From an uncultured bacterium (GTDB lineage: Bacteria > Hydrothermota > UBA3073 > NMUJ01 > CBEVQO01), in assembly GCA_965552055.1 (NCBI GenBank), contig CBEVQO010000005.1:13373-77372 (forward strand): a DNA stretch of 64,000 nt. Direction: 5' to 3'. Position numbers and translations under genes: made by a program. Below the pieces are notes generated by a model. The model was not told the origin of the DNA, ran no database searches, and was given only the letters and a program-made list of their open reading frames with translations. Positions 2,365 through 20,923 of this stretch are shown here, piece by piece. Each line of letters starts with the position of its first letter. The first letter of the stretch is position 1.

Positions 2365-2384
2365 CATCACCTCACATTTCTATA

Positions 2385-2411: not shown

Positions 2412-2413
2412 CA

Positions 2414-2521: not shown

Positions 2522-2539
2522 AAAAATTTTAAAGCCGCT

Positions 2540-3196
2540 CTAATATTCACCTTTGTGGTGTTTTATGACTTTGCCTTCTACCATAAATATCACATCTTCA
2601 CAGATGTTTGTAGATAAATCTCCTATGCGCTCTAATGCATGAGAAATTCTCAACAAATGCAGTGAGCGCTCGATGGTAGATGGGTCCGAACACATATAAG
2701 TAATTAGCTCTCTTAAAATCTGCTCACCTAAATTATCAACAATTTCATCACTCTGGCACACTATCCTGGCCTTCTCTGTATCTTCGTTTATAAAAGAATC
2801 TATGGCTTTCTTTAACATATTTGTGGCTTCTTCAGCCATCCTTGGAATATCAATTAATGGTTTGACAGGCGGTCTTTCTATCAAAAACATGGCACTTTGT
2901 GATATATTTACTGCTAAATCGCCGATCCTCTCTAAATCGTTATTCATTTTTAAAATCATAAGAATAGTTCTTAAATTTTTTGCCTCTGGCTGATACAGGG
3001 CGATTAAATTTGTGCATAATTCATCTAATTCTATCTCAAATTCATTCATCTTTGGTTCATATTCTTCTATTACTTCTTTTAAAATTTCTTTCCTTTTTTC
3101 AATAAGTCCTTTGATTGACTTTCTAACCATATCTTCAGCCAGTCCTGCCATCTCAATTAATTTCTTTTTTAATATATTGATTTTTTCTGCAAGCAT
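2540..3196 (-). CDS. phoU: Phosphate transport system regulator PhoU
   Basis: 218 aa with two repeated halves, each carrying LERIGD (LERIGDLAVNI, LERIGDLSTNI). Sits directly downstream of pstB. Confidence 0.85.
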   Translation of the reverse strand: MLAEKINILKKKLIEMAGLAEDMVRKSIKGLIEKRKEILKEVIEEYEPKMNEFEIELDELCTNLIALYQPEAKNLRTILMILKMNNDLERIGDLAVNISQSAMFLIERPPVKPLIDIPRMAEEATNMLKKAIDSFINEDTEKARIVCQSDEIVDNLGEQILRELITYMCSDPSTIERSLHLLRISHALERIGDLSTNICEDVIFMVEGKVIKHHKGEY

Positions 3197-3205
3197 ATCA
3201 CCTCC

Positions 3206-3961
3206 TTATCCAAATTTACCCATTAGATAATCTTCTGTACGCTTATCCCTGGGTCTTGTAAATACTTCTTCAGTTGGACCATATTCTATAAACTCTCCAT
3301 GCATAAGAAATGCTACATAGTCAGATACTCTTGCTGCTTGTTGAATATTGTGAGTTACGATAATTATTGTATATTTATTTTTCAAGTTTTCAAGTAATTC
3401 TTCGAGTTTCGCAGTAGCTATTGGGTCTAAAGCAGATGCAGGTTCATCAAGTAGTATTATTTCGGGCTCAACAGCCAGTGCCCTTGCTATACAAAGTCGT
3501 TGCTGCTGACCACCTGAAAGTGCGAGTGCAGAAGTATGTAATCTATCTTTAACTTCATCGAAAAGATTAGCATCTATCAGTGCCTTCTCAACCCTTTCCT
3601 GTAATTCTCTTTTATTTTTAACTCCATGAATTTTTAGTCCATATGCCACATTCTCAAATATTGATTTGGGTAAAGGATTGGGCTTCTGGAATACCATGCC
3701 TACTCGTTTGCGAAGCTCATACACATCGATGTCATCAGAATATATATCTTTGCCGTCAATAAGAATTTGTCCCTCTACTCTTGCATCATCAATTAAATCT
3801 ATCATTCGGTTGATGCATCTTAGAAAAGTAGATTTACCACAGCCAGATGGTCCCATTATCGCAGTTATCTTATTTTCCTTTATAGATATGTTATTATTAA
3901 CCAAAACATGTTTATCCCCGTACCATACATTTAAATTCTTAACGATTATTTTGTCTACCAT
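3206..3961 (-). CDS. pstB: Phosphate ABC transporter ATP-binding protein PstB
   Basis: Walker [13 protein letters not shown] signature [15 protein letters not shown], Walker [13 protein letters not shown]. Position within pstSCAB order. Confidence 0.9.
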
Positions 3962-4800
3962 TTCTTTCTTCTTCTTTTTATTCTTATTAGTATAGCTGTT
4001 AAGTTTATTCCCACAACGAGTATAAGGAGCACAAGAGCAGTTCCGTAAGCGATAGGCACCTGCAAATCGGGTTTCGTTCCTTCTGTCATCAATGCATAAA
4101 TATGGTAGGGTAATGCCATTACTTCATCGAATATTGACCTTGGTAATCTTCTTGTATAAAAAGTAGCGGCTGTGAATAAAATAGGTGCTGTTTCACCTGC
4201 TGCTCGCCCTATCCCGAGTATAACACCTGTTAATATACCGGGCATAGCATTGGGAAGGACAACATGGGTTATCGTTTGCCATTTTGTCGCACCCAGTGCA
4301 TAAGATGCCTCCATGAATGTTTGAGGCACAGTAAGAATAGCCTCTTCACTTGCTCTTATTATCGTGGGTAATATAAGCATCCCTAATGTCAGTGCTCCTG
4401 CAAGGATTGATACTCCAAATTTAAACAATTTTACAAAAACCGCAAGTCCAAAAAGCCCAAATACAACAGAAGGCGTACCGGCGAGTGTATTTATGCCTAT
4501 TCTTATAATTCTTGTTAGTTTAGATGATTTCGCGTATTCGGTTAGATAAACGGCACTCAAAACCCCTAAGGGTAAGGCAAAAAGTATCGCACCTACAGAA
4601 AGATAAAGTGTACCAATAATAGCAGGGAAAATGCCTCCTTTTGTCATGCCTTCTCTCGGGAAGTCAAAAATAAAATTTAAACTCAAAACTTTAAATCCAC
4701 GAATAAAGATAAAAAAGAGTATTATAAAAAGAGAAAGAACCGCTATCAAGCATGCAAACCTGCACATCAAAAAACCTATATTTTGTTTAAATCTTCTCAT
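3955..4800 (-). CDS. pstA: Phosphate ABC transporter permease PstA
   Basis: Multi-pass permease with ABC transmembrane-domain signature region; sits between pstC and pstB. Confidence 0.8.
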
Positions 4801-5656
4801 AACCTTTTTCTTTTATGTAATTTGCCAAAATATTTAATCCCAGAGTTATTAAAAACAGTATTATGCTGATAGCGAATAGTGCGTGATAATGGGGACTTCC
4901 TACGGGTGCTTCTCCCATTTCTGCTGCAATAGTCGCTGTCATAGGTCTAACGGGTTGTAAGAATGAATGCGGGATGACCGCTGCACCTCCTGCAACCATA
5001 AGCACAGTCATTGTCTCACCTATTGCCCTGCCAAGACCCAGAATAATGGCTCCTAAAATTCCTGATTTCGCAGAGGGTATGATTGCTCGCGTTAGCGTCT
5101 CCCATTTGGTTGCTCCCAATGCATATGATGCCTCTTTTATTTCTTTTGGAACAGATGCTATAGCATCTTCTGCTATGCTGGTAATCGTTGGTAGTGCCAT
5201 AATTCCAAGAAGACAAGACGCAGTAAAGGCGTTCAATCCCACAGGTATTTTAAAAAGCTTTTGTACAAATGGTGCAAAAACTACCATACCAAAGAAACCG
5301 TATATTACAGAAGGTATGCCCGCAAGAAGTTCTATCATCGGCTTTATAATTTCTCTAATTTTTGGATGACTCAATTCAGATATATATATTGCCGTGCCTA
5401 TTCCAAGTGGAACGGCTACCATCATTGCACCAAAAGTAACAATAAGTGAAGCCAGAATGAGTGGTAATATGCCGAACTCAGGTGGCTCATGGGTAGGATA
5501 CCAGAACTTACCGAAAATGAATTTTACAGGATTTACTATTTTAAAAATTGGGAGTCCTTCTTTGAACAAAGAAATAGCAATTCCAAATAGAAAGATAATT
5601 GATAAAGAGGCACAGAAGCGAAGCATATATTCGATGAATTTTTCCTTCTTCAACAT
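4787..5656 (-). CDS. pstC: Phosphate ABC transporter permease PstC
   Basis: Multi-pass permease following pstS. ORF track begins at 5713, overlapping pstS by 44 nt; the internal ATG at 5654-5656 (MLKKEKF...) avoids the overlap and has a weak AAGAG upstream. Confidence 0.75.
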   Translation of the reverse strand: MLKKEKFIEYMLRFCASLSIIFLFGIAISLFKEGLPIFKIVNPVKFIFGKFWYPTHEPPEFGILPLILASLIVTFGAMMVAVPLGIGTAIYISELSHPKIREIIKPMIELLAGIPSVIYGFFGMVVFAPFVQKLFKIPVGLNAFTASCLLGIMALPTITSIAEDAIASVPKEIKEASYALGATKWETLTRAIIPSAKSGILGAIILGLGRAIGETMTVLMVAGGAAVIPHSFLQPVRPMTATIAAEMGEAPVGSPHYHALFAISIILFLITLGLNILANYIKEKGYEKI

Positions 5657-5669
5657 TTTATCACTCTTA

Positions 5670-6506
5670 TCATTCATCTGTCGGCTTAACAGGAACAAAT
5701 CCAGCTTCTTCAACTATCTTTTGTCCTTCTGGGTTCAGAACGAAATCAATAAACTCCTTCGCTAAGCCCTTTGGTTTTCCGTCCGTATAAAAATAAAGCG
5801 GTCTTGAGAGTTTGTATTCCCCTGATGCTACTGTCTTTTTAGTAGGCTTTACTCCATCAACTGTGAGTGCTTTAACTTTTGATGAAACATATCCGAGTCC
5901 CACATATCCTATAGCGCCAGGTGTCTTTTCCACAGTTGTAGCAACTGCCTTATTTGATGCTAGCATAAGCGCATCTGCTCTCGTCTTTGCACCTTTTAAA
6001 ACCAGTTTTTTAAAAACTTCAAATGTGCCTGATGCTACATCTCTCGATATCACCACAATTCTGCCGGATTTACCGCCTACATCTTTCCAGTTGCTTATCT
6101 TACCGGTATAAATATCTCTTAATTGTGCCATAGTTATTTCTGACAGCGGGTTAGATGGATGCACGATAATAGCTATACCATCGCGTGCAATTACAGTAGC
6201 TACGGGATTTATACCTTTACTCCTTGCGGATTTAAGTTCTTTTGTTTTCATTGGTCTTGATGCCATAGCAATATCGCATGTTCCGTCAATAAGAGCAGCA
6301 ATACCAACACCAGAGCCACCTCCTCTTACACTTATATCCACATCAGGATGCTGTTCCATGAATTTTTCAGCGCATAATTGAGCGATTGGAAGTACTGTCG
6401 TTGAGCCAGTCAGCGTGAGAGTTTTTTTAGCGAATGCTGTCTCATACATGAGCACCTGTGCAGATATTACACCTGCACATACTATATTTTTGACCCATCC
6501 CTTCAT
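5670..6506 (-). CDS. pstS: Phosphate-binding protein PstS (periplasmic substrate-binding)
   Basis: Signal peptide, then TLTLTGSTTVLPIAQ...VRGGGSGVGIAALIDGTCDIAMASRPMK typical of PstS-family binding proteins. First gene of the pstSCAB block. Confidence 0.8.
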   Translation of the reverse strand: MKGWVKNIVCAGVISAQVLMYETAFAKKTLTLTGSTTVLPIAQLCAEKFMEQHPDVDISVRGGGSGVGIAALIDGTCDIAMASRPMKTKELKSARSKGINPVATVIARDGIAIIVHPSNPLSEITMAQLRDIYTGKISNWKDVGGKSGRIVVISRDVASGTFEVFKKLVLKGAKTRADALMLASNKAVATTVEKTPGAIGYVGLGYVSSKVKALTVDGVKPTKKTVASGEYKLSRPLYFYTDGKPKGLAKEFIDFVLNPEGQKIVEEAGFVPVKPTDE

Positions 6507-6518
6507 GCTACACCTCCC

Positions 6519-7526
6519 TTAAAAAGGATTTGTCGCAAATTCCCATCTTAATTGCATTAGAAATTCATTCTCAGCATCTTTATTCTGGTTTTCATATTGC
6601 TTTCGTTCGTAATTTACCTGTAGCATCACACCTGGTTTACCTTTTTTACGCCTAACAATGTAATAGTTAAAACCGCATATCATTCTGTAGTGCGCATCTT
6701 TTTCTTTATCAATATTTTCATCCCAGTAATCAACTCTGCCTACTAACTCAAGATTAGGGTTGAGTTTTAAAACCGGCATTATCATAGCACCTAATCCGGT
6801 AATTTCGGGTTTGCCCGTTTTTGTAAAAACGAGTTCACCCCAGCAATCAATCGGTCTGCGTGCAACTCTACAAACACCAGCCATTAAAAATCTTTTTGAT
6901 GCTTCTTTTTTCTCATAAAGGAGAGACCCACCGATAGTTAACCCGGGTATGGGTATAAATCTAACATTACCAACAAATGCAGGATACTTATCAACATTAC
7001 TTTTGCATTTCTTATAACCTTCTCCGTTATAGATTCCGAGTTGCCACTCTCCCATTCCTTTCGGAATATCCGCATTGAAAGTTACGCCGTAGTCAGCACT
7101 TGATACTAACTTCTCTTTATCTTCGAATGATTTTTCAATGGTTACATATTTCCAGTCATAAATAGTTCCCCAGTAAGTTTTCTGTAATCCTGCTGTAATC
7201 TTACCATAAGGGATGATACTCTTAAAATCGAGATACCCGTATTTAAGTTTGATACCAGCTCCATGTGGGTCTTTATCGCTTGAGAATATATCGACATTTA
7301 TTCTACATTTGATTTTATCGGTGAATGCATGTTCCCATCGCAAGTAGCATCTCTCCAGTGCAAAATAACTTTCATCCAGTCCTGTAGTTTCGCCTGCCTC
7401 TCTGGCTGTATATCTGAACCATGTATATGCTTTGAACTGAGATTCCCCCGGTATCAGCCCAGCGTACGAGCAATATGCATAAATCGTCCCCAAAAGCATC
7501 AGCACTTTTATAAATTTACACATCAC
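6519..7526 (-). CDS. Outer-membrane beta-barrel protein, putative phosphate-selective porin (OprO/P-like)
   Basis: Signal peptide MMCKFIKVLMLLGTIYAYCSYA, aromatic-rich alternating pattern, C-terminal Phe (..ATNPF). Lies immediately upstream of pstS in the same operon. Porin specificity is inferred from context only. Confidence 0.45.
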   Translation of the reverse strand: MMCKFIKVLMLLGTIYAYCSYAGLIPGESQFKAYTWFRYTAREAGETTGLDESYFALERCYLRWEHAFTDKIKCRINVDIFSSDKDPHGAGIKLKYGYLDFKSIIPYGKITAGLQKTYWGTIYDWKYVTIEKSFEDKEKLVSSADYGVTFNADIPKGMGEWQLGIYNGEGYKKCKSNVDKYPAFVGNVRFIPIPGLTIGGSLLYEKKEASKRFLMAGVCRVARRPIDCWGELVFTKTGKPEITGLGAMIMPVLKLNPNLELVGRVDYWDENIDKEKDAHYRMICGFNYYIVRRKKGKPGVMLQVNYERKQYENQNKDAENEFLMQLRWEFATNPF

Positions 7527-8026
7527 ACCTCCTTTTTGCTTTTCATATTAATCCTCATCTTCCTTATAAGCAGTTGCCTAATTTGTCTCACTTTCTCTCT
7601 CCGAATACCTAACTCCTCAGCTATCTGTGATAAAGTTTTTCCCTCTTGAAAATGCAATTCAAATATTTTTTGCTCAAGTTGAGATAAGTTTTTAGCAATA
7701 GAAGATATATCTAAATTCATTCCTCTATAATCTTCATTCCTGTTATTATCTTCTAAAATTTCTTCATTTAATTCTAAAAGTCTCATGGTTTGTATTTTTT
7801 CTCTCCTGACTGCTTCCACAATTTTTTTCTTTATCCAGTAAAATGCATAAGTTGAAAATTTTGAGCCATTGGATGGTTCAAATCTTTTTTCTGCTTCAAG
7901 TAGTCCCAGAAATCCTTCCTGTATTAAATCCTCGAGTGGCACACCATTTCCTTTGTATTTAGTAGCAATTGATTTTATCATAGGTAAATAATCCATGCAC
8001 AATTTTGTAAGTCTATCGCTTTTCAT
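7523..8026 (-). CDS. Small sigma-70-family sigma factor (ECF-like) embedded in the phosphate cluster
   Basis: Region 2-like DLIQEGFLGLLEAEKRFEPSNGSKFSTYAFYWIKKKI and region 4 HTH-like LSQIAEELGIRREKVRQIRQ. 167 aa. 4-nt overlap with the porin gene. Confidence 0.6.
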   Translation of the reverse strand: MKSDRLTKLCMDYLPMIKSIATKYKGNGVPLEDLIQEGFLGLLEAEKRFEPSNGSKFSTYAFYWIKKKIVEAVRREKIQTMRLLELNEEILEDNNRNEDYRGMNLDISSIAKNLSQLEQKIFELHFQEGKTLSQIAEELGIRREKVRQIRQLLIRKMRINMKSKKEV

Positions 8027-8741
8027 TTGTTTTCCTCATTAAGTAAATTGCAACATTTTCATTTTTTCTTATAGCATCTTTTATTGCTTCGATATTCTTT
8101 TCTGCTTTTATTAATGTCTTCCACGAATAAAGGTGCCAAGGTTCATGGAAATCAGAATTTGCAATATAATTGTATTTCTTTACTCCAATTGAATTAAACA
8201 AATCATCGCGATTGGCAACTTCCCAGGCATCAAACATTTCTTTGAATTTTTCCTGATTCTCCCATAAATACCATGATAGATGTTCTTTATCTTCTTTTTT
8301 CCTGTCCGGATGAGCAGCAATAACAATGGCATTTTGCTCTTTTACTTCTTTAATAATCTCTTCCACAGGTAAAGATGGTTCAACATATTCTTTTATATCT
8401 ATGGCAAGAATGTGATATAAATCACGATTATTGGTGATTTCTACTCCCGGAATTAACAGCATGTTGTATTCTTTCCATGCTCTTTTTGCTTCTTTCCATA
8501 ATGTTTTTAAATAATCCTTAAAATTTTCTTTTGTTATCGCATTTATTTGTTCTCCTTTCCTTATACGCTCTTCAAGGGTATACTTATCTAAAATATGGTC
8601 AGTTATTGAAATAACATCAAAACCATGTTTCCCGAATAGATCAACAACTTCTCTAAGTGGTAGTTTGCCGTCGCTAAATTTTGTGTGAATATGGAAATCG
8701 CAAAGCAACCAGTTCATCTCACTCACATAATTTATACACAA
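8013..8741 (-). CDS. PHP-domain metal-dependent phosphoesterase
   Basis: N-terminal CDFHIHTKFSDG (HxH metal motif), further His/Asp positions (ITDH, AAHPD, SDFHEP). Probable start at the internal Met MNWLLCDF. Confidence 0.6.
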   Translation of the reverse strand: MCINYVSEMNWLLCDFHIHTKFSDGKLPLREVVDLFGKHGFDVISITDHILDKYTLEERIRKGEQINAITKENFKDYLKTLWKEAKRAWKEYNMLLIPGVEITNNRDLYHILAIDIKEYVEPSLPVEEIIKEVKEQNAIVIAAHPDRKKEDKEHLSWYLWENQEKFKEMFDAWEVANRDDLFNSIGVKKYNYIANSDFHEPWHLYSWKTLIKAEKNIEAIKDAIRKNENVAIYLMRKTNEKR

Positions 8742-8780
8742 TAATTGTTAAGTGAGTATAAAGGAAATGTTAATTTTTGG

Positions 8781-10499
8781 TTAAGATGGGAATGTAATTA
8801 TGAATTCTGTTCCTTCACCTACTTTGCTTTTTACATCTATTTTTCCATTATGTAAAAGCACAACATGTTTTACAATAGAAAGACCAAGTCCTGTTCCACC
8901 AAGTTTCTTGGAGCGAGATTTATCAACAACATAAAATCTTTCAAATATTCGGGGAAGATGCTCATCAGGAATGCCAATCCCTGTATCCCTTACGCTCACA
9001 ATTACTTTTTTATCCACTCTCTTTAAGGAAACAGTCACTTCTCCTTTCTCTGTGTATTTAATAGCATTATCTATTAAATTGATAAACAGTTGCTCCAATT
9101 TAAAAGGGTCTCCCTTTATTACAGGTTCGCCTTCACATATCAAATTCAATTTTAGCCCCTTTTCTTTTGCTTTTTGTTCAAATATTTTAAATACATTTTC
9201 TACTATGCACCTTAAATTTGCATTTTCCTTTATTTGGGTTAATCCTTTTTCTTCAAGTTCCGATAAGAGAAGCAAATCGTTAACAATATTTATAAGCCGT
9301 TCTGTATGCCGTTTTATAACCTCTAAATAATGTTTAGCATTACCTTCTATTTCTTCCTCTAAAGTTTCAATATACCCTTTTATAGCTGTAAGAGGCGTTC
9401 TTAACTCATGAGAAACATTTATCACAAAATCTTTCTTTATCCTTTCAAGTTTTTTAAATTCGGTAATATCATGCAAAACAATTATCAGCTCTTCCTTAGA
9501 AGGTATAATGACAAAACTCGCTAAAAATACTTTTCCATTCAATTCTATCTCTTCAGAAGATATTCTTTTTTCTCTCTTTACCTTCTCTATCAATTCTGCT
9601 ATCTTTGGATTTCTTAAAATTTCCCACCAGAATTTTCCTTCGGGATTTGTCTGGACAACTTTTTTGAAAGATTCATTAAAAAGAATGATTTTTCCTTCTT
9701 TATCCAGAACTAAAAGCCCTTCTTCAAGAAAAGAGATGATGCTATTTAATTCCTCTTGCTTCAATGATAAATCATTAAACAGACGCTTTAATTCTTCTGA
9801 CATTCTGTTGAAACTGCGAGCTAATTCTCCTATCTCATCTTCCCTTCTAAACATTACCTTCGTAGAAAAATCACCACCAGACAATTTTTTAAATGCCAAG
9901 GCAAGTTCTTTTAAAGGATGAGAAATATTTCTTGAAAAAAGGAAAGCTCCTATTAAAGATAGAAGTGTCACAAAAATTACAATCGCAAAAATTTTAAGCC
10001 TGAGGTTATTGAGCAATTTATTTATGTCCTTTAAAAATAAACTTACTCTTAAGATGCCCACGAAGTTTCCTTTTGACTTAACAGGTATCGCGACATATAG
10101 CATCTCTTCTTTCACTGTGGTGCTGAATCTTAAAGATTTACCGAAGCCTTTCTCTCTGGCTTGCTTGACCTCAGGTCTGTTGCTGTGGTTCTCCATTTGT
10201 CGAGGGTCTTTCTCTGAATCTGCCCAAACTTCACCAGAAGGTGCAATAACTGTGATCCTTGTCTTTATTTTTTTACCTACATTTTTAACAAGAGAATCTA
10301 AACCATTGTAATCTTTCCTCTCTATAAAAGGTAAAACTTGAGGTTTAAGTGCGTAAGCTAAATTTTTAAGTTCTAAAGACAGGGTGTTTATGTAATGATG
10401 CCTTATCGTTTTAAAAGAAAAAACGAACACAAGGATTGAAATCAAAAAAATGATTAAACAGAAGCAATAAAAGATTTTAAAGAATATGGATTTTTTCAT
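8781..10499 (-). CDS. Sensor histidine kinase, PhoR-like (periplasmic sensor, HAMP, PAS, HisKA, HATPase)
   Basis: Two TM segments flank a ~150-aa extracytoplasmic domain. H-box HELRTPL, N-box NLIDNAIKYT, G-boxes DTGIGIP and GGTGLGLSIVK. 4-nt overlap with the upstream response regulator. Confidence 0.8.
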   Translation of the reverse strand: MKKSIFFKIFYCFCLIIFLISILVFVFSFKTIRHHYINTLSLELKNLAYALKPQVLPFIERKDYNGLDSLVKNVGKKIKTRITVIAPSGEVWADSEKDPRQMENHSNRPEVKQAREKGFGKSLRFSTTVKEEMLYVAIPVKSKGNFVGILRVSLFLKDINKLLNNLRLKIFAIVIFVTLLSLIGAFLFSRNISHPLKELALAFKKLSGGDFSTKVMFRREDEIGELARSFNRMSEELKRLFNDLSLKQEELNSIISFLEEGLLVLDKEGKIILFNESFKKVVQTNPEGKFWWEILRNPKIAELIEKVKREKRISSEEIELNGKVFLASFVIIPSKEELIIVLHDITEFKKLERIKKDFVINVSHELRTPLTAIKGYIETLEEEIEGNAKHYLEVIKRHTERLINIVNDLLLLSELEEKGLTQIKENANLRCIVENVFKIFEQKAKEKGLKLNLICEGEPVIKGDPFKLEQLFINLIDNAIKYTEKGEVTVSLKRVDKKVIVSVRDTGIGIPDEHLPRIFERFYVVDKSRSKKLGGTGLGLSIVKHVVLLHNGKIDVKSKVGEGTEFIITFPS

Positions 10500-11176
10500 T
10501 CTTCTATTTTGTAGCCTATTCCTCTTACGCTTTTTATAAATTTCTTGGCTTTGCCTAATTTTTCTCTTAAATTCTTAATATGGACATCTACTGTCCTATC
10601 CAGAACAACTTTATCAATTCCCCATAATTTATCCAGAATCTGGTCCCTTGTAAATACCCAGCCTTTTCTTTCTGCCAGTATTTTTAGAATCCTGAATTCC
10701 GTTGGAGTTAAGTCCACTTTTTTATTTTCAACAAAGACTTCATATTTATTGAGGTCTATTACGAGGATATCACCTATTTTAATCTTTTTGCAGGTATCAT
10801 GCGGTGCTTTCCTTCTTAAGACTGCTTTTACTCTGGCAACTAACTCCCTTGGTGAGAAGGGCTTTGTCACATAATCATCTGCTCCCAGTTCCAGACCCAA
10901 AACTTTATCTGCTTCGGTAGTGCGTGCGGTAAGCATAATGATAGGAATAGATTTAAATTCATCTTTTGATTTTAGATACTTACAAACCTCAAAGCCATCC
11001 ATATCAGGAAGCATGAGATCCAAAATTATAAGGTCAGGTATCTGTGAGGATAAAAATTCGAAGAAATCTTCAGCATTCTGAAAGCATTTAACTTTAAAAC
11101 CATGCTTAGTGAGATGTAAAGATACAAGCTCTAAAATATCAGGCTCATCATCTATCACAGCTATTAATTCATTCAT
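10496..11176 (-). CDS. OmpR/PhoB-family response regulator (PhoB-like)
   Basis: Receiver domain (DDEPDIL, LDLMLPDMDGFEV, conserved Lys in YVTKPF) plus winged-helix output (LTPTEFRILKILAERKGWVFTRDQI). First gene of the phosphate cluster. Confidence 0.85.
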   Translation of the reverse strand: MNELIAVIDDEPDILELVSLHLTKHGFKVKCFQNAEDFFEFLSSQIPDLIILDLMLPDMDGFEVCKYLKSKDEFKSIPIIMLTARTTEADKVLGLELGADDYVTKPFSPRELVARVKAVLRRKAPHDTCKKIKIGDILVIDLNKYEVFVENKKVDLTPTEFRILKILAERKGWVFTRDQILDKLWGIDKVVLDRTVDVHIKNLREKLGKAKKFIKSVRGIGYKIEE

Positions 11177-11188
11177 CGCATTTCTCTA

Positions 11189-11215
11189 AACTTATTCAAT
11201 ATACAGGTATGTCAA
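11189..11215 (-). promoter_or_regulatory. sigma70-like promoter (TTGACA-N15-TAAGTT) for the Pho cluster; near-leaderless
   Basis: Minus-strand TTGACA 11215-11210 and TAAGTT 11194-11189. The ATG at 11176 lies about 12 nt after the -10 with no SD. Block is near-identical to 2372-2416. Confidence 0.45.
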
Positions 11216-11217
11216 CA

Positions 11218-11296
11218 ATTTTTAGCCCACCTCCCTATCCCCACCTCCCTATCCCCACCCCACAACCCATTGGTAATTAGCTCGCTTACGCTCGCA
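11218..11296 (-). repeat. Intergenic GC/G-tract-rich repeat, copy 2 (internal 14-bp tandem duplication)
   Basis: atttttagcccacctccctatccccacctccctatccccaccccacaacccattggtaattagctcgcttacgctcgca. Tandem 14-mer acctccctatcccc at 11229-11242 and 11243-11256. Lacks the hairpin block seen in copies 1 and 4. Confidence 0.5.
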
Positions 11297-11303
11297 TTTT
11301 TAC

Positions 11304-11331
11304 TTGACATCCTTAAAGATAAAATTATAAT
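11304..11331 (+). promoter_or_regulatory. sigma70-like promoter (TTGACA-N16-TATAAT) for the restriction-modification operon
   Basis: TTGACA 11304-11309 and TATAAT 11326-11331. The ATG at 11340 lies about 8 nt after the -10, so the AGGAG directly abutting the ATG is probably not a functional SD and the mRNA is likely leaderless. Confidence 0.5.
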
Positions 11332-11339
11332 TAAAGGAG

Positions 11340-12041
11340 ATGAATCTAAAGGAAGTTCAAAATAGACTTCAAGAAATTAAAAATAAAGGATTTGTGCCAT
11401 CTTTAAGAAGAGGAACAACAGGAATTGGATACACCTTTGAGATACTTTTTGGAATAAAGGAAAACAATATCCCAATCCCAGACATCGGCGGAAGAGTTGA
11501 AATTAAAACAATAAGAAGAGATTCGCAATCTTTAATAACATTATTTACTTTTAATAGAGGCGTCTGGCATATAAAGCAAAAAGAACTAATCAAAAAATAT
11601 GGATATGTTGATAAAAAGGGTAGATATGCATTAAAAAATACGGTTTTTTATGGCAAATCCATTCCACAAGGAATATCATTAGAAGTAGATGAAGATAAAA
11701 ACACTATTCATTTAGTTGATACGAATACAAAGAAAGTCCTTGCAACATGGGATGTTTATGTCATTGTCGGTATATTTATGACAAAATTGAGCAAATTATT
11801 ACTCGTAATAGCTGATAGAAAGAAAGAGAAAGGTAAAGAATATTTTCACTACAATGAAGCTTACCTTTTGACAGATCCCAGTGCTCGAAATTTTATAAAA
11901 GCATTTAAAAATTCCCTAATAGGCATTGATATTAGAATGCATCTAAAAGAAAGCGGAGAAGTTAGAAATAGAGGAACTGCATTCCGTATAAAAGAAAAGG
12001 ATTTATTAGAACTTTATGAAAATCGCAAGAAACTTATTTAA
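11340..12041 (+). CDS. Putative type II restriction endonuclease, MutH/MvaI/BcnI-like PD-ExK fold
   Basis: 233 aa with a candidate PD...ExK active site (IPIPDIGGRVEIKT) in a MutH-like arrangement. Stop is 2 nt before the SPPY methyltransferase gene. Confidence 0.5.
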   Translation: MNLKEVQNRLQEIKNKGFVPSLRRGTTGIGYTFEILFGIKENNIPIPDIGGRVEIKTIRRDSQSLITLFTFNRGVWHIKQKELIKKYGYVDKKGRYALKNTVFYGKSIPQGISLEVDEDKNTIHLVDTNTKKVLATWDVYVIVGIFMTKLSKLLLVIADRKKEKGKEYFHYNEAYLLTDPSARNFIKAFKNSLIGIDIRMHLKESGEVRNRGTAFRIKEKDLLELYENRKKLI

Positions 12042-12043
12042 AA

Positions 12044-13312
12044 ATGCCTGCAATTATGCATAGATTTAAAAAATATAGAGACAAAACATGGGATTTTCGT
12101 ATGGCGAATACAAAGCAATATACTCATTGTTTTCATTCTTATCCTGCAATGATGATACCGCAAGTCGCAGGACGCATTTTGGATGAATTTGGAAAAAATT
12201 CTAAACTTTTATTCGATCCATATTGCGGTACAGGAACTTCTTTAGTAGAAGCAAATTTAAGAGGCATAAATGCTATCGGCACAGACATTAACCCATTGGC
12301 TAGATTAATAGCTAAAGTTAAAACAACCATTATTCCTTTAAAATCTTTGGATTTATATATAAAAGATTTCAACGATTTTGTTCTTTCAATACGATTAGGA
12401 GGGAGAAAAGTTTCTCCTAAAATTCCTAATTTTAAAAATATCGATTATTGGTTCAAAAAAGAAACACAATATTGGCTCGCTGTCATTAAAGAATATATTG
12501 AAAAAATTGATAACGAAGATATTAGGGACTTCTTTAAAGTAGCATTTAGTGAAACAGTAAGAGAAGTATCGTTGACCCGAAATAGTGAATTTAAACTATA
12601 TAGAATGAGTGAAAAGCAAATAGAGAAATTTAATCCCGATGTTTTCTTTATAATGATGGAGAAATTAATAAGAAATAGAAATGGAATGGCAGAATATATC
12701 AAAATAAAAAAGAACAAAGCATCTTCTAAAATCTACGATTTTAACACAGTCTATGAGATTCCATTCGATATAATTCCACCAGAAAGTATAGATATCGTGG
12801 TAACTTCTCCACCATATGGTGATTCTAGAACCACAGTAGCATATGGACAATTTTCTCGACTCGCTAACCAATGGTTGGAATTTGAAGAAACTAACGAAGT
12901 AGATAAAAAGTCAATAGGTGGAGTAAGAAAGAAAGAATATAGAAATTTTAATGTTGAAGTGTTAGACAAAGTGCTATTTAAAATTGCACGAATAGATGAA
13001 AAAAGATTATATGATGTGATTTCATTTTACATAGACTATGAAAAATCCATAAATAATGTTGCTAAAGTTGTTAAAAAGGGCGGTATTGTAGCGTATGTAG
13101 TGGGTAATCGCAAGGTAAAGGGCATAGAAATTCCAAATGATGAAATAACCAAAGAATTTTTTGAAAGAAATGGCTTTAAGCATATTAAAACCATAATAAG
13201 AGAAATTCCAAATAAAAGGATGCCTAAAAGAAATAGTCCGAGCAATATAGCAGGAATAACGGATACAACTATGAATTACGAATACATTGTTATCTTGAGA
13301 AAAGAAAAATAA
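12044..13312 (+). CDS. DNA methyltransferase with SPPY motif IV (N4-cytosine/N6-adenine class, alpha-like order)
   Basis: AdoMet motif I FDPYCGTGTSLVEA near the N-terminus and motif IV VVTSPPYGD near residue 255, with the intervening region as presumptive target-recognition domain. Confidence 0.75.
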   Translation: MPAIMHRFKKYRDKTWDFRMANTKQYTHCFHSYPAMMIPQVAGRILDEFGKNSKLLFDPYCGTGTSLVEANLRGINAIGTDINPLARLIAKVKTTIIPLKSLDLYIKDFNDFVLSIRLGGRKVSPKIPNFKNIDYWFKKETQYWLAVIKEYIEKIDNEDIRDFFKVAFSETVREVSLTRNSEFKLYRMSEKQIEKFNPDVFFIMMEKLIRNRNGMAEYIKIKKNKASSKIYDFNTVYEIPFDIIPPESIDIVVTSPPYGDSRTTVAYGQFSRLANQWLEFEETNEVDKKSIGGVRKKEYRNFNVEVLDKVLFKIARIDEKRLYDVISFYIDYEKSINNVAKVVKKGGIVAYVVGNRKVKGIEIPNDEITKEFFERNGFKHIKTIIREIPNKRMPKRNSPSNIAGITDTTMNYEYIVILRKEK

Positions 13313-13318
13313 TTCTTT

Positions 13319-15679
13319 TCACTCATGCTCCTCAAAGCCTTTGAGTAATTCTGCCATTTCTCTCAGTTTCTGGTCAACGAGGTAATTTACGGTATCAGGT
13401 TCATAAGTGCCATCGGGCAAAAGTTTTCCCGCTTTTACACCCGTTAGCAATTCAATGCCTTCATCAATGGTTTTTATCGCATAAATATGAAATTTGCCAT
13501 CTTCAACTGCTTTAACAACTTCTTTATTCAACATTAGATTTTTGATATTCTGATAGGGTATAATCACTCCCTGTGTGCCAGTAAGCCCTTTTGCCTTGCA
13601 TACTCTGAAAAAGCCCTCGATTTTTTCGTTAACACCTCCTATTGGCTGTATCTCACCCCATTGATTCACAGAACCTGTAACAGCGAGGTCCTGACGGATA
13701 GGCAGTCCAGATAGGCACGATAAAAGTGCGTAAAGCTCCGTGCTCGAAGCACTATCACCTTCTATTTCTTCATACATCTGCTCAAAGCATATACTCGCAG
13801 AAAGAGAAAGCGGTTTATTATGTGCATATTTGCCAGCAAGATAAGCACTCAAAATCAAAACTCCTTTGCTGTGAATAGGACCACTCATTTCAATTTCACG
13901 CTCAATGTTTAAAATGCCCTTCTTACCCATATAAACCCTGGCAGTAACACGAACAGGATAGCCAAAAGAATAATCACCGAGCTCAACAACAGTCAAACCA
14001 TTCACCTGACCTACTTTTTTGCCTTCAACATCTATAAGTAATCTGCCTCTTTTTATTTCTTCGTGTATTTTTTCTTCTATCAAATTTACCCTGTAGCGCT
14101 TTTTCTCAAGTGCCTTTTCAACATGCTCTGCCGTCACATATTTACTGCCATCCTGTTCTGCCCAGAAACTCGCTTCAGTTATCACATCAACAACTTCTAT
14201 AAATTTTGTGGATAATTTATCCTGGTCTCCCGTTAACTCCGAGCCATATTCAAGTATGCGTGCTACACCAGATGGGTCAAAATGCTTCAAATTTTTATCC
14301 CTGCATTGTTTCGCAATAAACGAAATATAAGCATCAATATGCTCCTTTGTTCTCGGCATCTCTGTATCAAAATCCGCTTTCACTTTAAACAATTTTCTGA
14401 AATCTTCATCAAATTCATGTAAAAGATGATAAAGCAAAGGTGTACCAATCAAAATAACTTTAACATTATGAGGGATGGGTTCTGGACGCAATGTAACAAC
14501 AGGTGTCTGACGCAATTCCTCACCTATATTCTCAATCCTCAACTCCTTTGTCCTTATCGCACGCTTTAAGGCATCCCATACAAATGGATTTAAAAGGGCT
14601 TCTTTCGCCGGTATTATCAAAAAGCCACCATTAGCCCTGTGAAAAGCTCCGGGTTTTATCAAAGTAAAATGAGTTACGAGATTGCCATCAACACTTTTAT
14701 ACTCAATTCTCCCAAAAAGATTATAATATGTCGGATTTGGTTCAAAAACAAGGGGTGCATGAGATAAATGTGAATTATCAACAAAAACATTAACTTTTAA
14801 GTTAAAAAGAAAATCAGGCTCCTCTTCTCCTGAAAGTGATTTTATCTTTTCAGTAAATTGTGCAAGGTATTCTTTGACACCATCAAAATATTCTTTCAAT
14901 TTCTTATATTTCTGATATTTCGCTTTAAGTTGTTTCACATATCTTCCGACCACATTTTTTACAATCCATTCATCGAGCTGTTTTATTTCTTCTCTCATTA
15001 CATCGTCAATTTCATGTAGCTTATGGAAGGTTTCGTCGAGTTTTTCCTTTATATATGCTCCTGCTTTTTCAATTTTTTCTTTTTCCTTTTTCGGAAGGGC
15101 TTCGAGTTCTTCAAGTGTATATTGTGTGCCATCTTCTTTCAGTGGCACTGCAAAAAGACCTGCAGGACGCCTTAAAACTTCAAAATTATATTTGCGGGCT
15201 TCTTTTTGTAATGATTCTAAAATTTCGGATTTCTTAGCTTCATATTTCTCTTTTATCGTATTGACTTCACGAAAATACTCATCGGATTTGAAAAAATGAG
15301 GCAATTTCTTTTTGCATGCGATTATTAATTTCTCCATATCTTCTGCAAGTTCTTTCCCTTTGCCTTTATCAAGTTCAACAAAAATAGGTTCTTCTGGCTT
15401 TTTAAAATTAAAAAGATAACAATAATCCTTTGGCGGTGGTAATTTTTTTGCGTATTCTTCTACAAATGCACGAACAGTGGAAGTCCTGCCGGTGCCAGGC
15501 AATCCCGATACAAATATGTTAAAGCCATCGGCTTTGGTCTGCAGACCAAATTTTATAGCTTCTACTGCACGCTCCTGACCAATGGTGCCGGTAAGTGGTT
15601 TGACTTCTTCAGTACTCTTAAATTTAAATTGCGAAATATCATATTTTAATCTAAGTTTATCAGCACTTAATTTTTCCAT
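13319..15679 (-). CDS. Lon-like protease (LonB/LonC-type) with degenerate P-loop
   Basis: P-loop-like GLPGTGRTS (Arg in place of the Walker A Lys) and no clear hhhhDE Walker B. C-terminal Lon protease domain with EGDSASST (Ser) and FFRVCKAKG (Lys). ORF track starts at TTG 15751, but the first 24 codons are the intergenic repeat; the likely start is ATG 15677-15679 (MEKLSADK...). Confidence 0.7.
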   Translation of the reverse strand: MEKLSADKLRLKYDISQFKFKSTEEVKPLTGTIGQERAVEAIKFGLQTKADGFNIFVSGLPGTGRTSTVRAFVEEYAKKLPPPKDYCYLFNFKKPEEPIFVELDKGKGKELAEDMEKLIIACKKKLPHFFKSDEYFREVNTIKEKYEAKKSEILESLQKEARKYNFEVLRRPAGLFAVPLKEDGTQYTLEELEALPKKEKEKIEKAGAYIKEKLDETFHKLHEIDDVMREEIKQLDEWIVKNVVGRYVKQLKAKYQKYKKLKEYFDGVKEYLAQFTEKIKSLSGEEEPDFLFNLKVNVFVDNSHLSHAPLVFEPNPTYYNLFGRIEYKSVDGNLVTHFTLIKPGAFHRANGGFLIIPAKEALLNPFVWDALKRAIRTKELRIENIGEELRQTPVVTLRPEPIPHNVKVILIGTPLLYHLLHEFDEDFRKLFKVKADFDTEMPRTKEHIDAYISFIAKQCRDKNLKHFDPSGVARILEYGSELTGDQDKLSTKFIEVVDVITEASFWAEQDGSKYVTAEHVEKALEKKRYRVNLIEEKIHEEIKRGRLLIDVEGKKVGQVNGLTVVELGDYSFGYPVRVTARVYMGKKGILNIEREIEMSGPIHSKGVLILSAYLAGKYAHNKPLSLSASICFEQMYEEIEGDSASSTELYALLSCLSGLPIRQDLAVTGSVNQWGEIQPIGGVNEKIEGFFRVCKAKGLTGTQGVIIPYQNIKNLMLNKEVVKAVEDGKFHIYAIKTIDEGIELLTGVKAGKLLPDGTYEPDTVNYLVDQKLREMAELLKGFEEHE

Positions 15680-15846
15680 TTTTAGCCCCGCCTCCGCTGT
15701 CCCCACCTTCCCGATTAAGTCAGCCCACTCCTTACCCTTCTTTAAACGCAATCAGAAGATAAAGCGTAAACAACCCGAATAACCCACATCCCCGTAATGG
15801 GCTGACATATCAACCCTTATGTAATGTGCTCGGCTGCGCCGAGCAA
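15680..15846 (-). repeat. Intergenic GC/G-tract-rich repeat, copy 3 (divergent middle, perfect 7-bp palindrome)
   Basis: tttttagccccgcctccgctgtccccacc ... caacccttatgtaatgtgctcggctgcgccgagca. Shares 5' and 3' blocks with copies 1, 2 and 4; the middle carries inverted repeat GTCAGCCCA/TGGGCTGAC. Abuts the Lon-like start codon directly (GGGGCTAAAAATG). Confidence 0.45.
15828..15844 (-). terminator. Hairpin GCTCGGC-tgc-GCCGAGC just downstream of the membrane-protein gene stop
   Basis: Perfect 7-bp stem, 3-nt loop, 4 nt after the stop at 15849. Only a weak U-rich tail follows, so terminator function is uncertain; it is also the conserved 3' block of the repeat. Confidence 0.3.
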
Positions 15847-15848
15847 TA

Positions 15849-17042
15849 TTACTCTTTCTTCTCTTCCTCTTTCTTCTCCTCTTTCTTTTCTTCTTCCTTC
15901 TTTTCCTCTTCCTCTATCGGCAATTCTTCTTCGGGCTTCTCTTCAAGCAGGTCTTTTTCATCTTTAATCTTAACAAGGACAACATAAAAGAGAGTTTGAC
16001 CGGCACTCCATGTTGCTAAACCATATCCCGCTACAAACATGCCAATGAAGTGGAAGGATAAACCAGCGAGAAAGCCACCAATCCAGTCAGCCCAGGTAAG
16101 AGGCTTCATCCACTCAACGCCCCACAGCAATACAGGAAGATGGAACACTTTTGCACAAAGTATCTCAGCCCATGGTACTCTCGGACAGCGCGGCAGATAC
16201 CACAAACCATTATTCCACATCACTTCCCACCATCTATAAGCACCGAGCTCCGTATATCTCGTGCCAGACCATAAGTTGAGTGCCCAGTGCATCAAAATGA
16301 GTGCCTTCTTAACCAGCCAGCCAAGAATATACACACCTGCAAACGCTGCAAATGCTATGAAAATCTGCCACAGAACTGTACGCCATGTCTGGTCATTCAA
16401 CACACTGAATACCTCAAAAAGAGTATCAAATGCATCGCTCTCCGTAGTAGCAGTAACAGCAGGAGATACTATAAGCGATAAAAACCATACTATCGCAAGG
16501 TAAACAACAAATAGCGCTCCAAATGCTATCGGGATAAAGAGCAAACCCGTTATTATCTGTCCAGCATAGGGAATCCTTCCAACGAGTCCACAGAGAAAAC
16601 CAACAAGAATCAGGAAGCCAATGAGAAATGTAAGCACAAGAGGAGCACCTATCGTGCCTTTCCACTGCTTCATCGCAAATCTTATAGCCTCTGTTACTTC
16701 GTAAAATTCATTGCCCTTTAACTGCTCAAAGGTCATCTTGCTGATAGCACAAACCGTAGTAAGCAGTATGAATACTCCAGCCGATACCCCTATAACCCAT
16801 ATCACCCAGCTCCATGGTCGAAGATGAGTGCCAACTCCCTTTACAGGTATTATCACCCACGGAATATACCTGAACTCACGCCAGACCTCTTTCCATGTCC
16901 AGCCCGAGGTAACATACGCTACATAGGCCAGTATAGAGTACACAACCGTCGCACTCAGTATCCCCAGGAACGCGATCCAGATTTTTTTAGCAGAGAACCC
17001 AAGACGAGGCGCCCTGACTACATCTGCAAAACCCCACTTCAT
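15849..17042 (-). CDS. Trp-rich polytopic membrane protein with acidic/basic (EEKK)n C-terminal tail
   Basis: Multiple hydrophobic helices; 26 Trp in 397 aa; tail ...EEKKEEEKKEEKKEEEKKE. Begins 12 nt after the trpS stop, so probably co-transcribed. Confidence 0.5.
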   Translation of the reverse strand: MKWGFADVVRAPRLGFSAKKIWIAFLGILSATVVYSILAYVAYVTSGWTWKEVWREFRYIPWVIIPVKGVGTHLRPWSWVIWVIGVSAGVFILLTTVCAISKMTFEQLKGNEFYEVTEAIRFAMKQWKGTIGAPLVLTFLIGFLILVGFLCGLVGRIPYAGQIITGLLFIPIAFGALFVVYLAIVWFLSLIVSPAVTATTESDAFDTLFEVFSVLNDQTWRTVLWQIFIAFAAFAGVYILGWLVKKALILMHWALNLWSGTRYTELGAYRWWEVMWNNGLWYLPRCPRVPWAEILCAKVFHLPVLLWGVEWMKPLTWADWIGGFLAGLSFHFIGMFVAGYGLATWSAGQTLFYVVLVKIKDEKDLLEEKPEEELPIEEEEKKEEEKKEEKKEEEKKE

Positions 17043-17054: not shown

Positions 17055-18029
17055 TTACCACATTCCTATTGCTTCCTTAACTTCCTTTAAAACCTCAGAT
17101 GCAACACTCCTTGCACGCTTCGAACCTTCAAAAATTATATCCTTAACATCTTCATCTTTTAAACTTTTAGCCCTCTCTCTAATCTCTCTGAAAAACTCCG
17201 ATAACTTTTGGGATGCCTCTTCCTTACACGCTACACAACCTCTTTTACCCTCCCTGCATTCCTTCTCAATGATACTTAAATTCTCTGCATTAACAAGGTT
17301 GTGATAGGCGAAAACAACACAACCTTCGGGATGACCAGGGTCATTTTTTCTTATCTTCTGAGGGTCTGTAAAAGCCTGCATAACTTTTTCTTTTATAACT
17401 TCAGGCTCATCTCTCACCAGTATATAATTTTTCAGCGATTTTGACATCTTTTTACCGTCAATCCCCGGTACTTTCGGTGACCTCGATAGAAGTGGCTGTG
17501 GCTCAGGGAATATCTTTTTATAAAGCGAGTTAAACCAGCGAGCAATTTGACGGGTTAATTCAAGATGAGCAAGCTGGTCTTCACCCACAGGTACTTTATT
17601 CGGCTTATACATCAAAATATCAACCGCCTGTAAAACAGGATACCCCAGTAACCCATAATTAACTTTTTCCCTCAAACCATAATCCCTTATCATCTCTTTG
17701 AGTGTTGGATTTCTTTCGAGCCAAGGCACAGGTACAAACATCGAAAAAATTAAATGCAATTCACAATGCTCGGGAACAAGCGATTGCAAAAAAATTACAG
17801 ATTTTTCAGGAGATATACCGGCAGAAAGCCAGTCCTTAGTCATTTCAATTATATTTTCCTTCAATTTAGATGTATCTTTATAATCTGTTGTCAATGCATG
17901 ATAATCTGCCAGCAAAAAATAACATTTATATTCATCCTGAAGTTTCAGCCAGTTACTTAAAGCACCAAAATAATTACCAATGTGAAGCTTGCCTGTTGTA
18001 CGCATACCAGATAAAATATTCTCTTTCAT
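17055..18029 (-). CDS. trpS: Tryptophan--tRNA ligase
   Basis: Class I signature HIGN (GKLHIGNYFG) and KMSKS (KKMSKSLKN); length 324 aa. Confidence 0.9.
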   Translation of the reverse strand: MKENILSGMRTTGKLHIGNYFGALSNWLKLQDEYKCYFLLADYHALTTDYKDTSKLKENIIEMTKDWLSAGISPEKSVIFLQSLVPEHCELHLIFSMFVPVPWLERNPTLKEMIRDYGLREKVNYGLLGYPVLQAVDILMYKPNKVPVGEDQLAHLELTRQIARWFNSLYKKIFPEPQPLLSRSPKVPGIDGKKMSKSLKNYILVRDEPEVIKEKVMQAFTDPQKIRKNDPGHPEGCVVFAYHNLVNAENLSIIEKECREGKRGCVACKEEASQKLSEFFREIRERAKSLKDEDVKDIIFEGSKRARSVASEVLKEVKEAIGMW

Positions 18030-18264: not shown

Positions 18265-19107
18265 GTGATGAGGTATGTATTGTTAGGAGTGATATGTTTG
18301 GGACTGGTGGTAGGATGTGCTCGTAAGTGGATTTCGGATGAAGAAGCGATAAGGGAACTCATAGATGAGCTCGGCTATCTGCTGGGTGCGGGCGAATATT
18401 ACGGTAAGGAAACAGGGGATACCACTGTTACTCAAGGTAAGGGATATGCCGGGGTGTTCTGGTACAGAAGTGTCGATAGTGTGAGCGTAGATCTTAAAGT
18501 GAATATAAATGGCGATTCCGCATGGGTTGAAATAGAAAGAATGATTTACGGAGTATTCCACAGGTTTCCTTTCGATACGATGCCAGCAGGTACTCTGGTT
18601 GATAAGCCAAAAGACCTAAAAGATAAAATCACAAGATATGCTATTTTCAGGAAGACAGGTAAGCCGAGGCGTCATCGTGGATGGTGTTTGCATAAATTGT
18701 CGGGAGCTATGGCAAAATCACAACTTGGAGGTCCCGATATAAAGATTGATAGTGTGAAGTTGATATTGAAAGGCGATACGATAACGATAAGAGAGCCCTT
18801 TGAGTTTACAGATACTGTGAATATTATTGAATGCCAGCAAAATGAAGAAATTGAAGTTTATGCCTATGTATCTCCCGATACTGTTCCTGTTCTTGTATTT
18901 TTACATTTTCCAGGTAATCAGCGCCACATAAGGAGGAGATGCATGATAATAAGTGATGGGGTATTTTATGGTGAGTGCAAGGTAGGCAGGAAGGGTTATG
19001 GAAGATTGGGAGTAGATGTGATATGGAGTCCAACATTGTTTGAAGATGATGAGAGTACTTATCCTTACTGTTCGAGGGCATGGATTATAAATATAAGGTG
19101 CAAGTGA
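18265..19107 (+). CDS. Hypothetical lipoprotein
   Basis: Signal peptide with lipobox LVVGC (MMRYVLLGVICLGLVVGCAR); no recognisable catalytic motif. Confidence 0.5.
   Translation: MMRYVLLGVICLGLVVGCARKWISDEEAIRELIDELGYLLGAGEYYGKETGDTTVTQGKGYAGVFWYRSVDSVSVDLKVNINGDSAWVEIERMIYGVFHRFPFDTMPAGTLVDKPKDLKDKITRYAIFRKTGKPRRHRGWCLHKLSGAMAKSQLGGPDIKIDSVKLILKGDTITIREPFEFTDTVNIIECQQNEEIEVYAYVSPDTVPVLVFLHFPGNQRHIRRRCMIISDGVFYGECKVGRKGYGRLGVDVIWSPTLFEDDESTYPYCSRAWIINIRCK

Positions 19108-19261: not shown

Positions 19262-20818
<1,557 letters not shown>

Positions 20819-20851: not shown

Positions 20852-20923
<72 letters not shown>

Follow-up and report, generated by a model that had tools for sequence, protein, structure and literature searches.

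Dispersed repeats confined to intergenic DNA are familiar from the BOX elements of Streptococcus pneumoniae (boxA-boxBn-boxC) and the BIME/REP mosaics of enterobacteria. These elements are strictly intergenic, measure about 75-170 nt, are modular, with conserved 5' and 3' modules around a middle one that may vary or be missing, include short, stable, GC-rich hairpins and differ in unit number from strain to strain. A repeat with each of these properties is described here from an uncultured thermophile, in a contiguous stretch of 64 kb (hereafter the window). It has no sequence similarity to BOX or BIME/REP, however, and its 3' module is a polar G-rich tract without a complementary partner. In contrast to those families, no inverted REP pairs were seen, and most copies border a promoter on its upstream side instead of occupying a 3' untranslated region. 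REP sequences can be accompanied by a RAYT-type transposase, whereas none was seen in the window. The extragenic imperfect palindrome of REP/BIME is kept by compensatory change, and this is also true of the 5' hairpin of the present repeat.

The Correia elements of Neisseria and promoter-sited MITEs offer a second comparison. Like the present repeat they are short, do not code for protein and stand immediately before numerous genes that are unrelated to one another; promoter sequences can be introduced or altered by them, and they can be hot spots of recombination. A Correia element is bounded by terminal inverted repeats of 26 bp and duplicates a TA target, whereas the repeat ends here share only an A/T-rich ATTTTTA and show no consistent duplication. 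Moreover, the promoters here vary among copies and are part of the flanking DNA. Of the features by which MITEs are recognised, the many near-identical copies (17 sites) and the absence from the orthologous sites of relatives were found; terminal inverted repeats and a target duplication were not.

Two of the repeat copies adjoin near-identical promoter blocks, denoted A and B. PhoB/PhoP-dependent promoters are a comparison for copy B, which likewise heads a phoB-phoR-pstSCAB-phoU cluster; unlike them, it has a consensus -35 hexamer and yielded no Pho box. A further parallel is segmental promoter duplication, or 'promoter capture': a short non-coding promoter segment is copied before another gene by way of one-sided repeat homology, as we propose for this locus. 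What would set the present case apart from other promoter captures is that the donor is a phosphate operon expected to be autoregulated and the recipient the very next gene.

The two promoter blocks and their genes

A repeat-family search of the window returned a 53-nt ungapped match of 94% identity (family D11) between 2372-2424 and 11176-11228, both on the minus strand, which is the gene strand of both blocks. The 26-mer AAATTGTTGACATACCTGTATATTGA within it is exact at 2392-2417 and 11196-11221 (both minus), and the 64 kb hold no third match at up to three mismatches (0 expected, from 100 shuffles). The promoter block can be written as TTGTTGACATACCTGTATATTGA. Allowing one 1-nt indel, the similarity extends upstream via GGTGGGGATAGGGAGG(C/T)(G)GGGCTAAAAAT (also read as GGTGGGGATAGGGAGGNGGGGCTAAAAAT), to give a match of about 71 nt at about 93% identity (2372-2442 versus 11176-11245). 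A preliminary description had reported a near-identical block at 2372-2416 and 11177-11222 with a shared -35, 15-nt spacer and -10, and both the 26-mer and the 53-nt match bear this out.

Copy B (11176-11228, minus) stands before the gene for a PhoB-like response regulator. It has the -35 element TTGACA at 11215-11210, a 15-nt spacer and the -10 element TAAGTT at 11194-11189, followed by a short leader, TAGAGAAATGCG, and the ATG of the regulator at 11176. Copy A (2372-2424, minus) stands before a gene of the RnfC family, with TTGACA at 2411-2406 and TAAGTT at 2390-2385; its leader carries GAGGTGAT, and the candidate starts are GTG 2370, ATG 2367 and ATG 2364. The leader distances given previously are correct: we find 12 nt from the -10 to the regulator ATG without a Shine-Dalgarno sequence, and 14-20 nt with GAGG for the RnfC-like gene.

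The blocks recur in independent assemblies, both copies in L001 and copy B in L002, L003, L004, L007 and L012. Repeats do break metagenome assemblies, and many contigs of this data set end at or near a repeat copy; a repeat-induced chimera might thus be suspected of having produced the second copy. We regard this as next to impossible. L001, a contig of a separate MAG, spans both copies with unique flanks, which contradicts a chimera and by which we exclude an assembly artefact, and the five positions at which A and B differ do so consistently across assemblies. Among the 105 loci compared, the 20-mer TTGACATACCTGTATATTGA is confined to the two sites and their orthologues, and viral contigs gave no match to the promoter sequence. 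Judged by their sequence, copies A and B are homologous rather than convergent, since the non-consensus spacer and both flanks are identical.

Between them the blocks bracket a tightly packed phosphate cluster (2540-11176, minus) that encodes, in order, the PhoB-like regulator, a histidine kinase, a PHP-domain protein, an ECF-type sigma factor, an unknown 335-aa protein, PstS, PstC, PstA, PstB and PhoU. The best NCBIfam match of the regulator is PhoB, and the kinase is PhoR/PnpS-like. The closest kinase homologues (76-79% identity) come from an Atrimonadaceae genome and from a MAG with the label Planctomycetia; Hydrothermota/WOR-3 follow at about 55%. The genes for the PHP-domain phosphoesterase, the ECF-type sigma factor and the 335-aa protein sit between the kinase gene and pstS (7523-8741) and are missing from the related operons in L026 and L027. 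Divergent from copy B are genes for an MvaI/BcnI-type restriction enzyme and a methyltransferase, whose promoter is a perfect TTGACA-16-TATAAT (TTGACA 11304). The RnfC-family gene (1048-2370, minus; TIGR01945, 563 bits) has no other rnf genes next to it. A small DUF123/GIY-YIG-like ORF and then an ATPase gene lie downstream. As the ATPase gene has its own spacer-15 promoter, read directly as TTGACA(707-702)-15-TATACT(686-681), the three genes may not form one transcription unit.

Promoter geometry

The 15-nt spacer is the norm for this organism. When TTGAC[AT]-N-TAnn[AT]T was counted in the window for spacers of 12 to 20 nt, the numbers were 0, 1, 2, 14, 3, 5, 4, 4 and 2; the 14 sites at spacer 15 form a sharp mode against 0-5 at any other spacer. 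A generic promoter scan had missed the block because only spacers of 16-18 nt were allowed there. Examples of spacer-15 sites are at 19141, 19208, 24274, 33689, 38058, 43173 and 62057 on the plus strand, at 55921, 38049 and 33675 on the minus strand and, outside the window, at L011 1894 and L019 7025. Two precede the 16S rRNA gene and thus the rRNA operon, and on either strand further sites come shortly before protein genes. On contigs of the same population, tRNA genes begin 8 nt past the -10 of two spacer-15 promoters, and this short distance fixes the assignment of the -10.

Protein genes behind these promoters fall into two classes. In the first the start codon follows the -10 by 2-7 nt and the gene is leaderless; in the second the gene has an AAGGAGG Shine-Dalgarno sequence and its start codon comes 15-25 nt past the -10. 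The distances of 12 nt (B) and 14-20 nt (A) are within the range of other promoters here, and the regulator leader without a Shine-Dalgarno sequence and the RnfC leader with GAGGTGAT are both unremarkable, because both gene classes occur. The -35 of each copy matches TTGACA at six of six bases. The earlier reading of the block as a promoter is thus upheld by the TTGACA-15-TAnnnT norm, rRNA and tRNA promoters included, from which we infer its activity. Both blocks appear to be copies of one housekeeping-type (sigma-70-type) promoter, TTGACA-15 nt-TAAGTT.

The 15-nt optimum departs from the usual 17, and we found no relevant literature on promoters with a 15-bp spacer. The primary-like sigma factor encoded in the window is short (272 aa, 53208-54026). 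The combination of TTGACA-15 nt-TAnnnT promoters with many leaderless genes in this lineage bears on the prediction of gene starts and promoters in such genomes.

A modular intergenic repeat

Upstream of the -35, both blocks adjoin the 3' end of a modular GC-rich intergenic repeat. The block had been described as a single promoter unit, and this stands for the promoter but not for its first 10 nt or so, GGCTAAAAAT, which are the 3' end of the repeat. It is for this reason that GGCTAAAAAT is common to unrelated genes (a Lon-like protease gene, the gene after the rRNA operon and others). Ubiquity of the block before unrelated genes, named in the preliminary description as a refutation of its reading, thus holds for the widespread GGCTAAAAAT end, but not for the promoter proper, which in the window and the loci compared was seen at the two sites and their orthologues.

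The pattern GGGGAN{3,4}GGAGGN{1,2}GGGCTAAAAAT has four sites in the window. A scan of metagenomes with the 3' motif gave 21 loci, 17 of them real, and nhmmer confirms the modules; nearly all of the real loci come from one hydrothermal metagenome, the same as that of the phoB contig. After removal of orthologues, the metagenome loci and the four window copies amount to 17 genomic sites, at least 13 of them outside the window.

From 5' to 3', the repeat consists of an A/T-rich edge, the hairpin GCGAGC-GTAA-GCGAGC, the segment ATTACATATGGGTTG, an optional middle module and a G-rich tail, GGGAAGGTGGGGAC(A/T)G(C)GGAGGNGGGGCTAAAAAT. The middle module is absent, or is a hairpin of about 35 nt (ACACCCC...GGGGTGT), or is about 100 nt long and closed by GTCAGCCCA...TGGGCTGAC. 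Direct reading indicates that the 5' hairpin is kept by double changes (GCGAGC/GCGAGC, ACGAGC/GCGAGT, GCGAGGC/GCCGAGC, GCTCGGC/GCCGAGC), and its loops are GNRA-like or GNA.

Each type is represented in the window. The minimal copy B (11218-11297, minus), between the divergent MvaI/BcnI promoter and the phoB promoter, has the hairpin, ATTACCAATGGGTTG, two tandem 14-nt units of GGTGGGGATAGGGA and the end GGGCTAAAAAT. Copy A (2414-2520, minus) has the middle hairpin and starts about 20 nt past the phoU stop. Copy C (15678-15845, minus) is of the long type and fills the gap between a gene for an unknown 397-aa protein and the Lon-like gene, whose ATG (15679) is provided by its end, CTAAAAATGG. Copy D (24160-24264, plus), again with the middle hairpin, follows an apparent intrinsic terminator, read directly at 24090-24158 behind the 23S rRNA gene; its downstream promoter is a different one, TTGACT 24274-15 nt-TATAAT. 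The rRNA operon itself (16S, tRNA-Ile, tRNA-Ala, 23S; 19266-24160) has a GC content of about 61% against about 36% in the rest of the window, as is common in thermophiles, and the 5S rRNA gene is absent behind the 23S gene, its place being taken by the terminator and copy D.

We considered a structured RNA and dropped this reading, the small 5' hairpin excepted, as folding was not clearly beyond that of shuffled sequences: the z-score of the long type is -2.1, and those of four other copies range from -1.9 to +0.9. RNAalifold returned invariant stems with almost no covariation for the long type. At gathering thresholds, an Rfam scan of the window gave rRNA and tRNA only, and an E-value scan of four repeat loci was empty. 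A role as intrinsic terminator was also rejected, since a scan of 1-17000 found no terminator-like site at copies A, B and C.

With regard to mobility, the window holds no transposase gene. No real terminal inverted repeats were found, the ends sharing just ATTTTTA / TAAAAAT, nor was a consistent target-site duplication: TAAAAAT flanks copy B on both sides but not the other copies. The repeat was not found in 80 loci of other species (L026-L105), which include the two closest relatives and the orthologous phoB upstream regions, nor in viral contigs. The 3' motif had no match in a collection of representative genomes, among which this species is not included, and no empty site was seen within the species. 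On these data the family is best described as a modular repeat of intergenic DNA, restricted to this lineage and of the same kind as REP/BIME, BOX elements or MITEs. The genome is compact, and the repeat would be tolerated solely where a gene end or a divergent promoter is followed by the next promoter; it would also serve as a recombination substrate. The family has not been described previously, and it marks promoter-proximal intergenic DNA in an uncultured thermophile.

Origin of the promoter copy

Repeat copy A is a mosaic. Its 5' two-thirds, that is the hairpin, the ATTACATA segment and the middle hairpin, are nearly identical to the L013 copy, while from GGTGGGGATAGGGAGG on it matches copy B, with which it shares the 3' module GGGGATAGGGAGG. 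In the tail, A and B alone read ATAG; the remaining copies have ACTG, ACAG or ACAGC.

Two relatives give information on which site is the older. The sequence directly upstream of phoB in L026 (kinase identity 79%), AAAAATTGTTTGAATTTTTATATGGAATGATTTTA, aligns with the block of B at a local score of 26, compared with 14.4 +/- 2.6 for mononucleotide shuffles (fraction 0.003), and the B leader TTTAGAGAAA is exact in L027 (shuffle fraction 0.02); both p-values are modest. Within the promoter block A and B differ twice (T/A and T/G), and in each case the relatives agree with B. Since the block of B resembles the phoB-upstream sequence of these two genomes, we regard B as the probable original, from which A would have been copied by recombination. 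This argument draws on two relatives with 76-79% histidine-kinase identity; the rnfC-like gene after phoU is absent from both. The B leader of L007 reads AAATGTGATG, as in A, and with this variant the shared tract reaches the microhomology GTGA(T/G)G at the right-hand junction. Because this junction shows microhomology alone, the event would not be classical gene conversion.

We suggest that a recombination event or a template switch was initiated in the homologous G-rich 3' module of two directly oriented repeats 8.8 kb apart, that the tract ran on across the phoB promoter and that it ended in the first leader bases at the GTGA(T/G)G microhomology, by which about 70 nt of the phoB site would have been written into the rnfC site. 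Repeat-mediated copying of the phoB promoter before the next gene is probably the correct, and in our judgement the best, explanation of the identity, its direction and mechanism being read from the sequences compared.

A different explanation is that the promoter is built into a subfamily of mobile repeats and faces outward from them, comparable to promoters of Correia elements or IS ends, and is present at many more loci. The block is indeed contiguous with the 3' end of the repeat, A and B have their private 3'-module variant in common, and AAAAATTGTTGACA also follows the L024 copy, though 6 nt further from the repeat end. At 15 other repeat sites, however, the sequence after CTAAAAAT is unlike the A/B block, and the confinement of TTGACATACCTGTATATTGA to the two sites and their orthologues also speaks against this explanation, as does the likeness of the block to the native phoB-upstream sequence of genomes without the repeat. 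We therefore think a promoter-carrying repeat very unlikely.

Alternatively, the direct repeats might matter as substrates for recombination, by which the 8.8-kb phosphate cluster could be amplified or excised, or as marks of its insertion, with the sharing of a promoter incidental. They bracket phoB to phoU exactly, and a related Atrimonadaceae genome has a 274-nt, 99% identical inverted repeat around the same operon. Against this, all independent assemblies have the same single-copy arrangement, no recombinase gene is nearby and about 70 nt is short for frequent RecA-dependent exchange. This role is highly improbable in our opinion.

If copying of the phoB promoter is accepted, the RnfC-like gene now carries a copy of the pho-operon promoter as the result of the proposed repeat-mediated exchange, and should have the same basal strength as the original, together with any regulation exerted between about -65 and +10. 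The event is of an ordinary kind, in what appears to be a new repeat family. The case would show a promoter passing to a neighbouring gene through recombination between dispersed repeats, and an identical promoter need not mean a shared regulon where, as we propose here, identity reflects a copying event.

The borders of the phosphate operon in the relatives merit separate description. In L027 (Atrimonadaceae bacterium, CP184673.1) the inverted repeat at 8837-9110 and 16557-16830 (274 nt, 99% identical) brackets the phoB-to-phoU operon and consists of the last 108 nt or so of phoU and about 165 nt downstream. In L026 the same phoU fragment is found upstream of phoB. Taken with blocks A and B, these fragments indicate that the borders of the phosphate operon carry duplicated sequence in two lineages, inverted there and direct here.

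Phosphate regulation

Identity of the two promoters could also have been kept by selection, if both were operators of the PhoB-like protein and the RnfC-like gene and its neighbours belonged to the phosphate regulon. The identity spans the non-consensus spacer, copy B heads a phoB-phoR-pst-phoU cluster that is expected to be autoregulated and whose regulator has PhoB as its best NCBIfam match, and a copied promoter brings any internal site with it. A Pho box was sought in the form of CTGTCAT or TT(A/T/C)ACA units that are directly repeated and either overlap the -35 or take its place. The window has no E. coli-type box CTGTCATAWAWCTGTCAY at up to three mismatches, a consensus that may not be that of this lineage. 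It has no strict Bacillus-type TT[ATC]ACA-N4-6-TT[ATC]ACA either, and the lone relaxed match (52893-52911) is far from both blocks. No direct repeat with a period of 8-13 nt was found in the shared 71-nt segment. The statement in the preliminary description that no convincing E. coli- or Bacillus-type Pho box is present agrees with these scans.

Typical PhoB-activated promoters lack a consensus -35 and usually have the box in its stead, but here the -35 is a perfect TTGACA. The identity reaches into the repeat module and the leader, which fits common descent and argues for copying rather than selection of an operator. Finally, the phoB promoter region of the relatives (L026, L027) differs further upstream, where it is replaced here by the repeat. 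We consider selection on a shared operator unlikely. Phosphate co-regulation of the RnfC-like gene is possible, as the copied promoter brings along any operator inside it, but is unsupported by the features of the DNA itself. Co-expression would not even need a shared promoter. The RnfC-like gene is the next gene after phoU on the same strand, the scan found no terminator-like site between them, and read-through from phoU could couple the genes.

Placement, variation and possible function of the repeat

At 11 or more of the 17 sites, the 3' end of the repeat is followed within 60 nt by the start of a gene in the same orientation. TTGACA follows the terminal AAAAAT in most of these, with a gap of 2-3 nt at seven sites, 5-9 nt at three and 14-15 nt at three. 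The promoters next to the repeat all differ between sites, with the exception of the A/B pair. What borders the 5' edge of the repeat is often a divergent TTGACA, seen at copy B, or else the stop codon that ends the preceding gene (copies A and C; L006). In copy C the end GGAGGCGGGGCTAAAAATGG (15678-15704) supplies a Shine-Dalgarno-like GGAGG as well as the ATG of the Lon-like protease gene. As there is no promoter between the gene for the 397-aa protein and lon, the 168-nt copy C is presumably transcribed in a two-gene mRNA.

The repeat varies between assemblies. Copy B has two of the 14-nt units GGTGGGGATAGGGA in the window (11246-11259) and one in four other assemblies. G-runs differ in length, with GGGG in copy A against GGG in L001 and GGGC in copy B against GGGGC (L001 4384-4409, 13281-13310), and the T-run before copy D is of 8 or 10 (L016). 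By their form, the differences in unit number, G-runs and T-runs are slippage-type polymorphisms just upstream of promoters. Orthologous repeats from two metagenomes (L006 1203-1307 and L018 1668-1772) are 96.2% identical; the upstream coding flank is about 93% identical and the 41 nt downstream, comprising promoter and leader, 83%. Such a difference points to constraint on the repeat or to concerted evolution among its copies.

Canonical G-quadruplex motifs (four G3+ runs, loops of 1-7) number only three in the 64 kb, although the scan included the 61%-GC rRNA operon, and they coincide with copies A, B and D (2422-2446, minus; 11247-11268, minus; 24231-24256, plus). The G-rich strand of these motifs is the coding strand of the downstream gene, and the orientation is the same in most sites. 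A G-quadruplex as a general conserved feature was rejected, as the commonest long type breaks the motif (GGGGACAGCGGAGG).

The repeat could be a genome-wide cis-acting module at the upstream edges of promoters rather than a passive or selfish element. As such it could act as a boundary or insulator or as a protein-binding or G-quadruplex platform, or its A-tract end could serve as an UP element. That the repeat end lies 2-3 nt from the -35 at seven of 13 sites, and 14-15 nt from it, about one helical turn more, at three others would fit. So would the shared orientation of G-rich strand and downstream gene, the quadruplex motifs of three window copies and the higher conservation of the orthologous repeat (96%) than of its adjacent promoter (83%). 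On present evidence we nevertheless consider such a module quite unlikely. If it exists, one upstream control module is common to the pho and the rnfC promoter, and through the direct repeats the cluster could also be amplified or excised.

Other features of the window

The cumulative GC skew has its minimum near 18 kb, where gene orientation flips from minus on the left to plus on the right. The minimum separates copies A-C (minus) from copy D (plus), as it does the genes, so that the orientation of the repeat fits transcription and replication alike. The skew suggests a replication origin between a Trp/Tyr-tRNA synthetase-like gene (17055-18029, minus) and an ORF at 18265-19107 (plus), before the rRNA operon.

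The intervals 38087-51430 and 51400-52428 include genes for two large proteins with T9SS C-terminal sorting domains, a 2737-aa ORF with internal repeats of about 890 nt and a gene for a Pus10-type pseudouridine synthase, a family known mainly from archaea and eukaryotes. The T9SS proteins, the 2737-aa ORF and the Pus10-type gene agree poorly with the label Atribacterota that the nearest homologue of the kinase carries.
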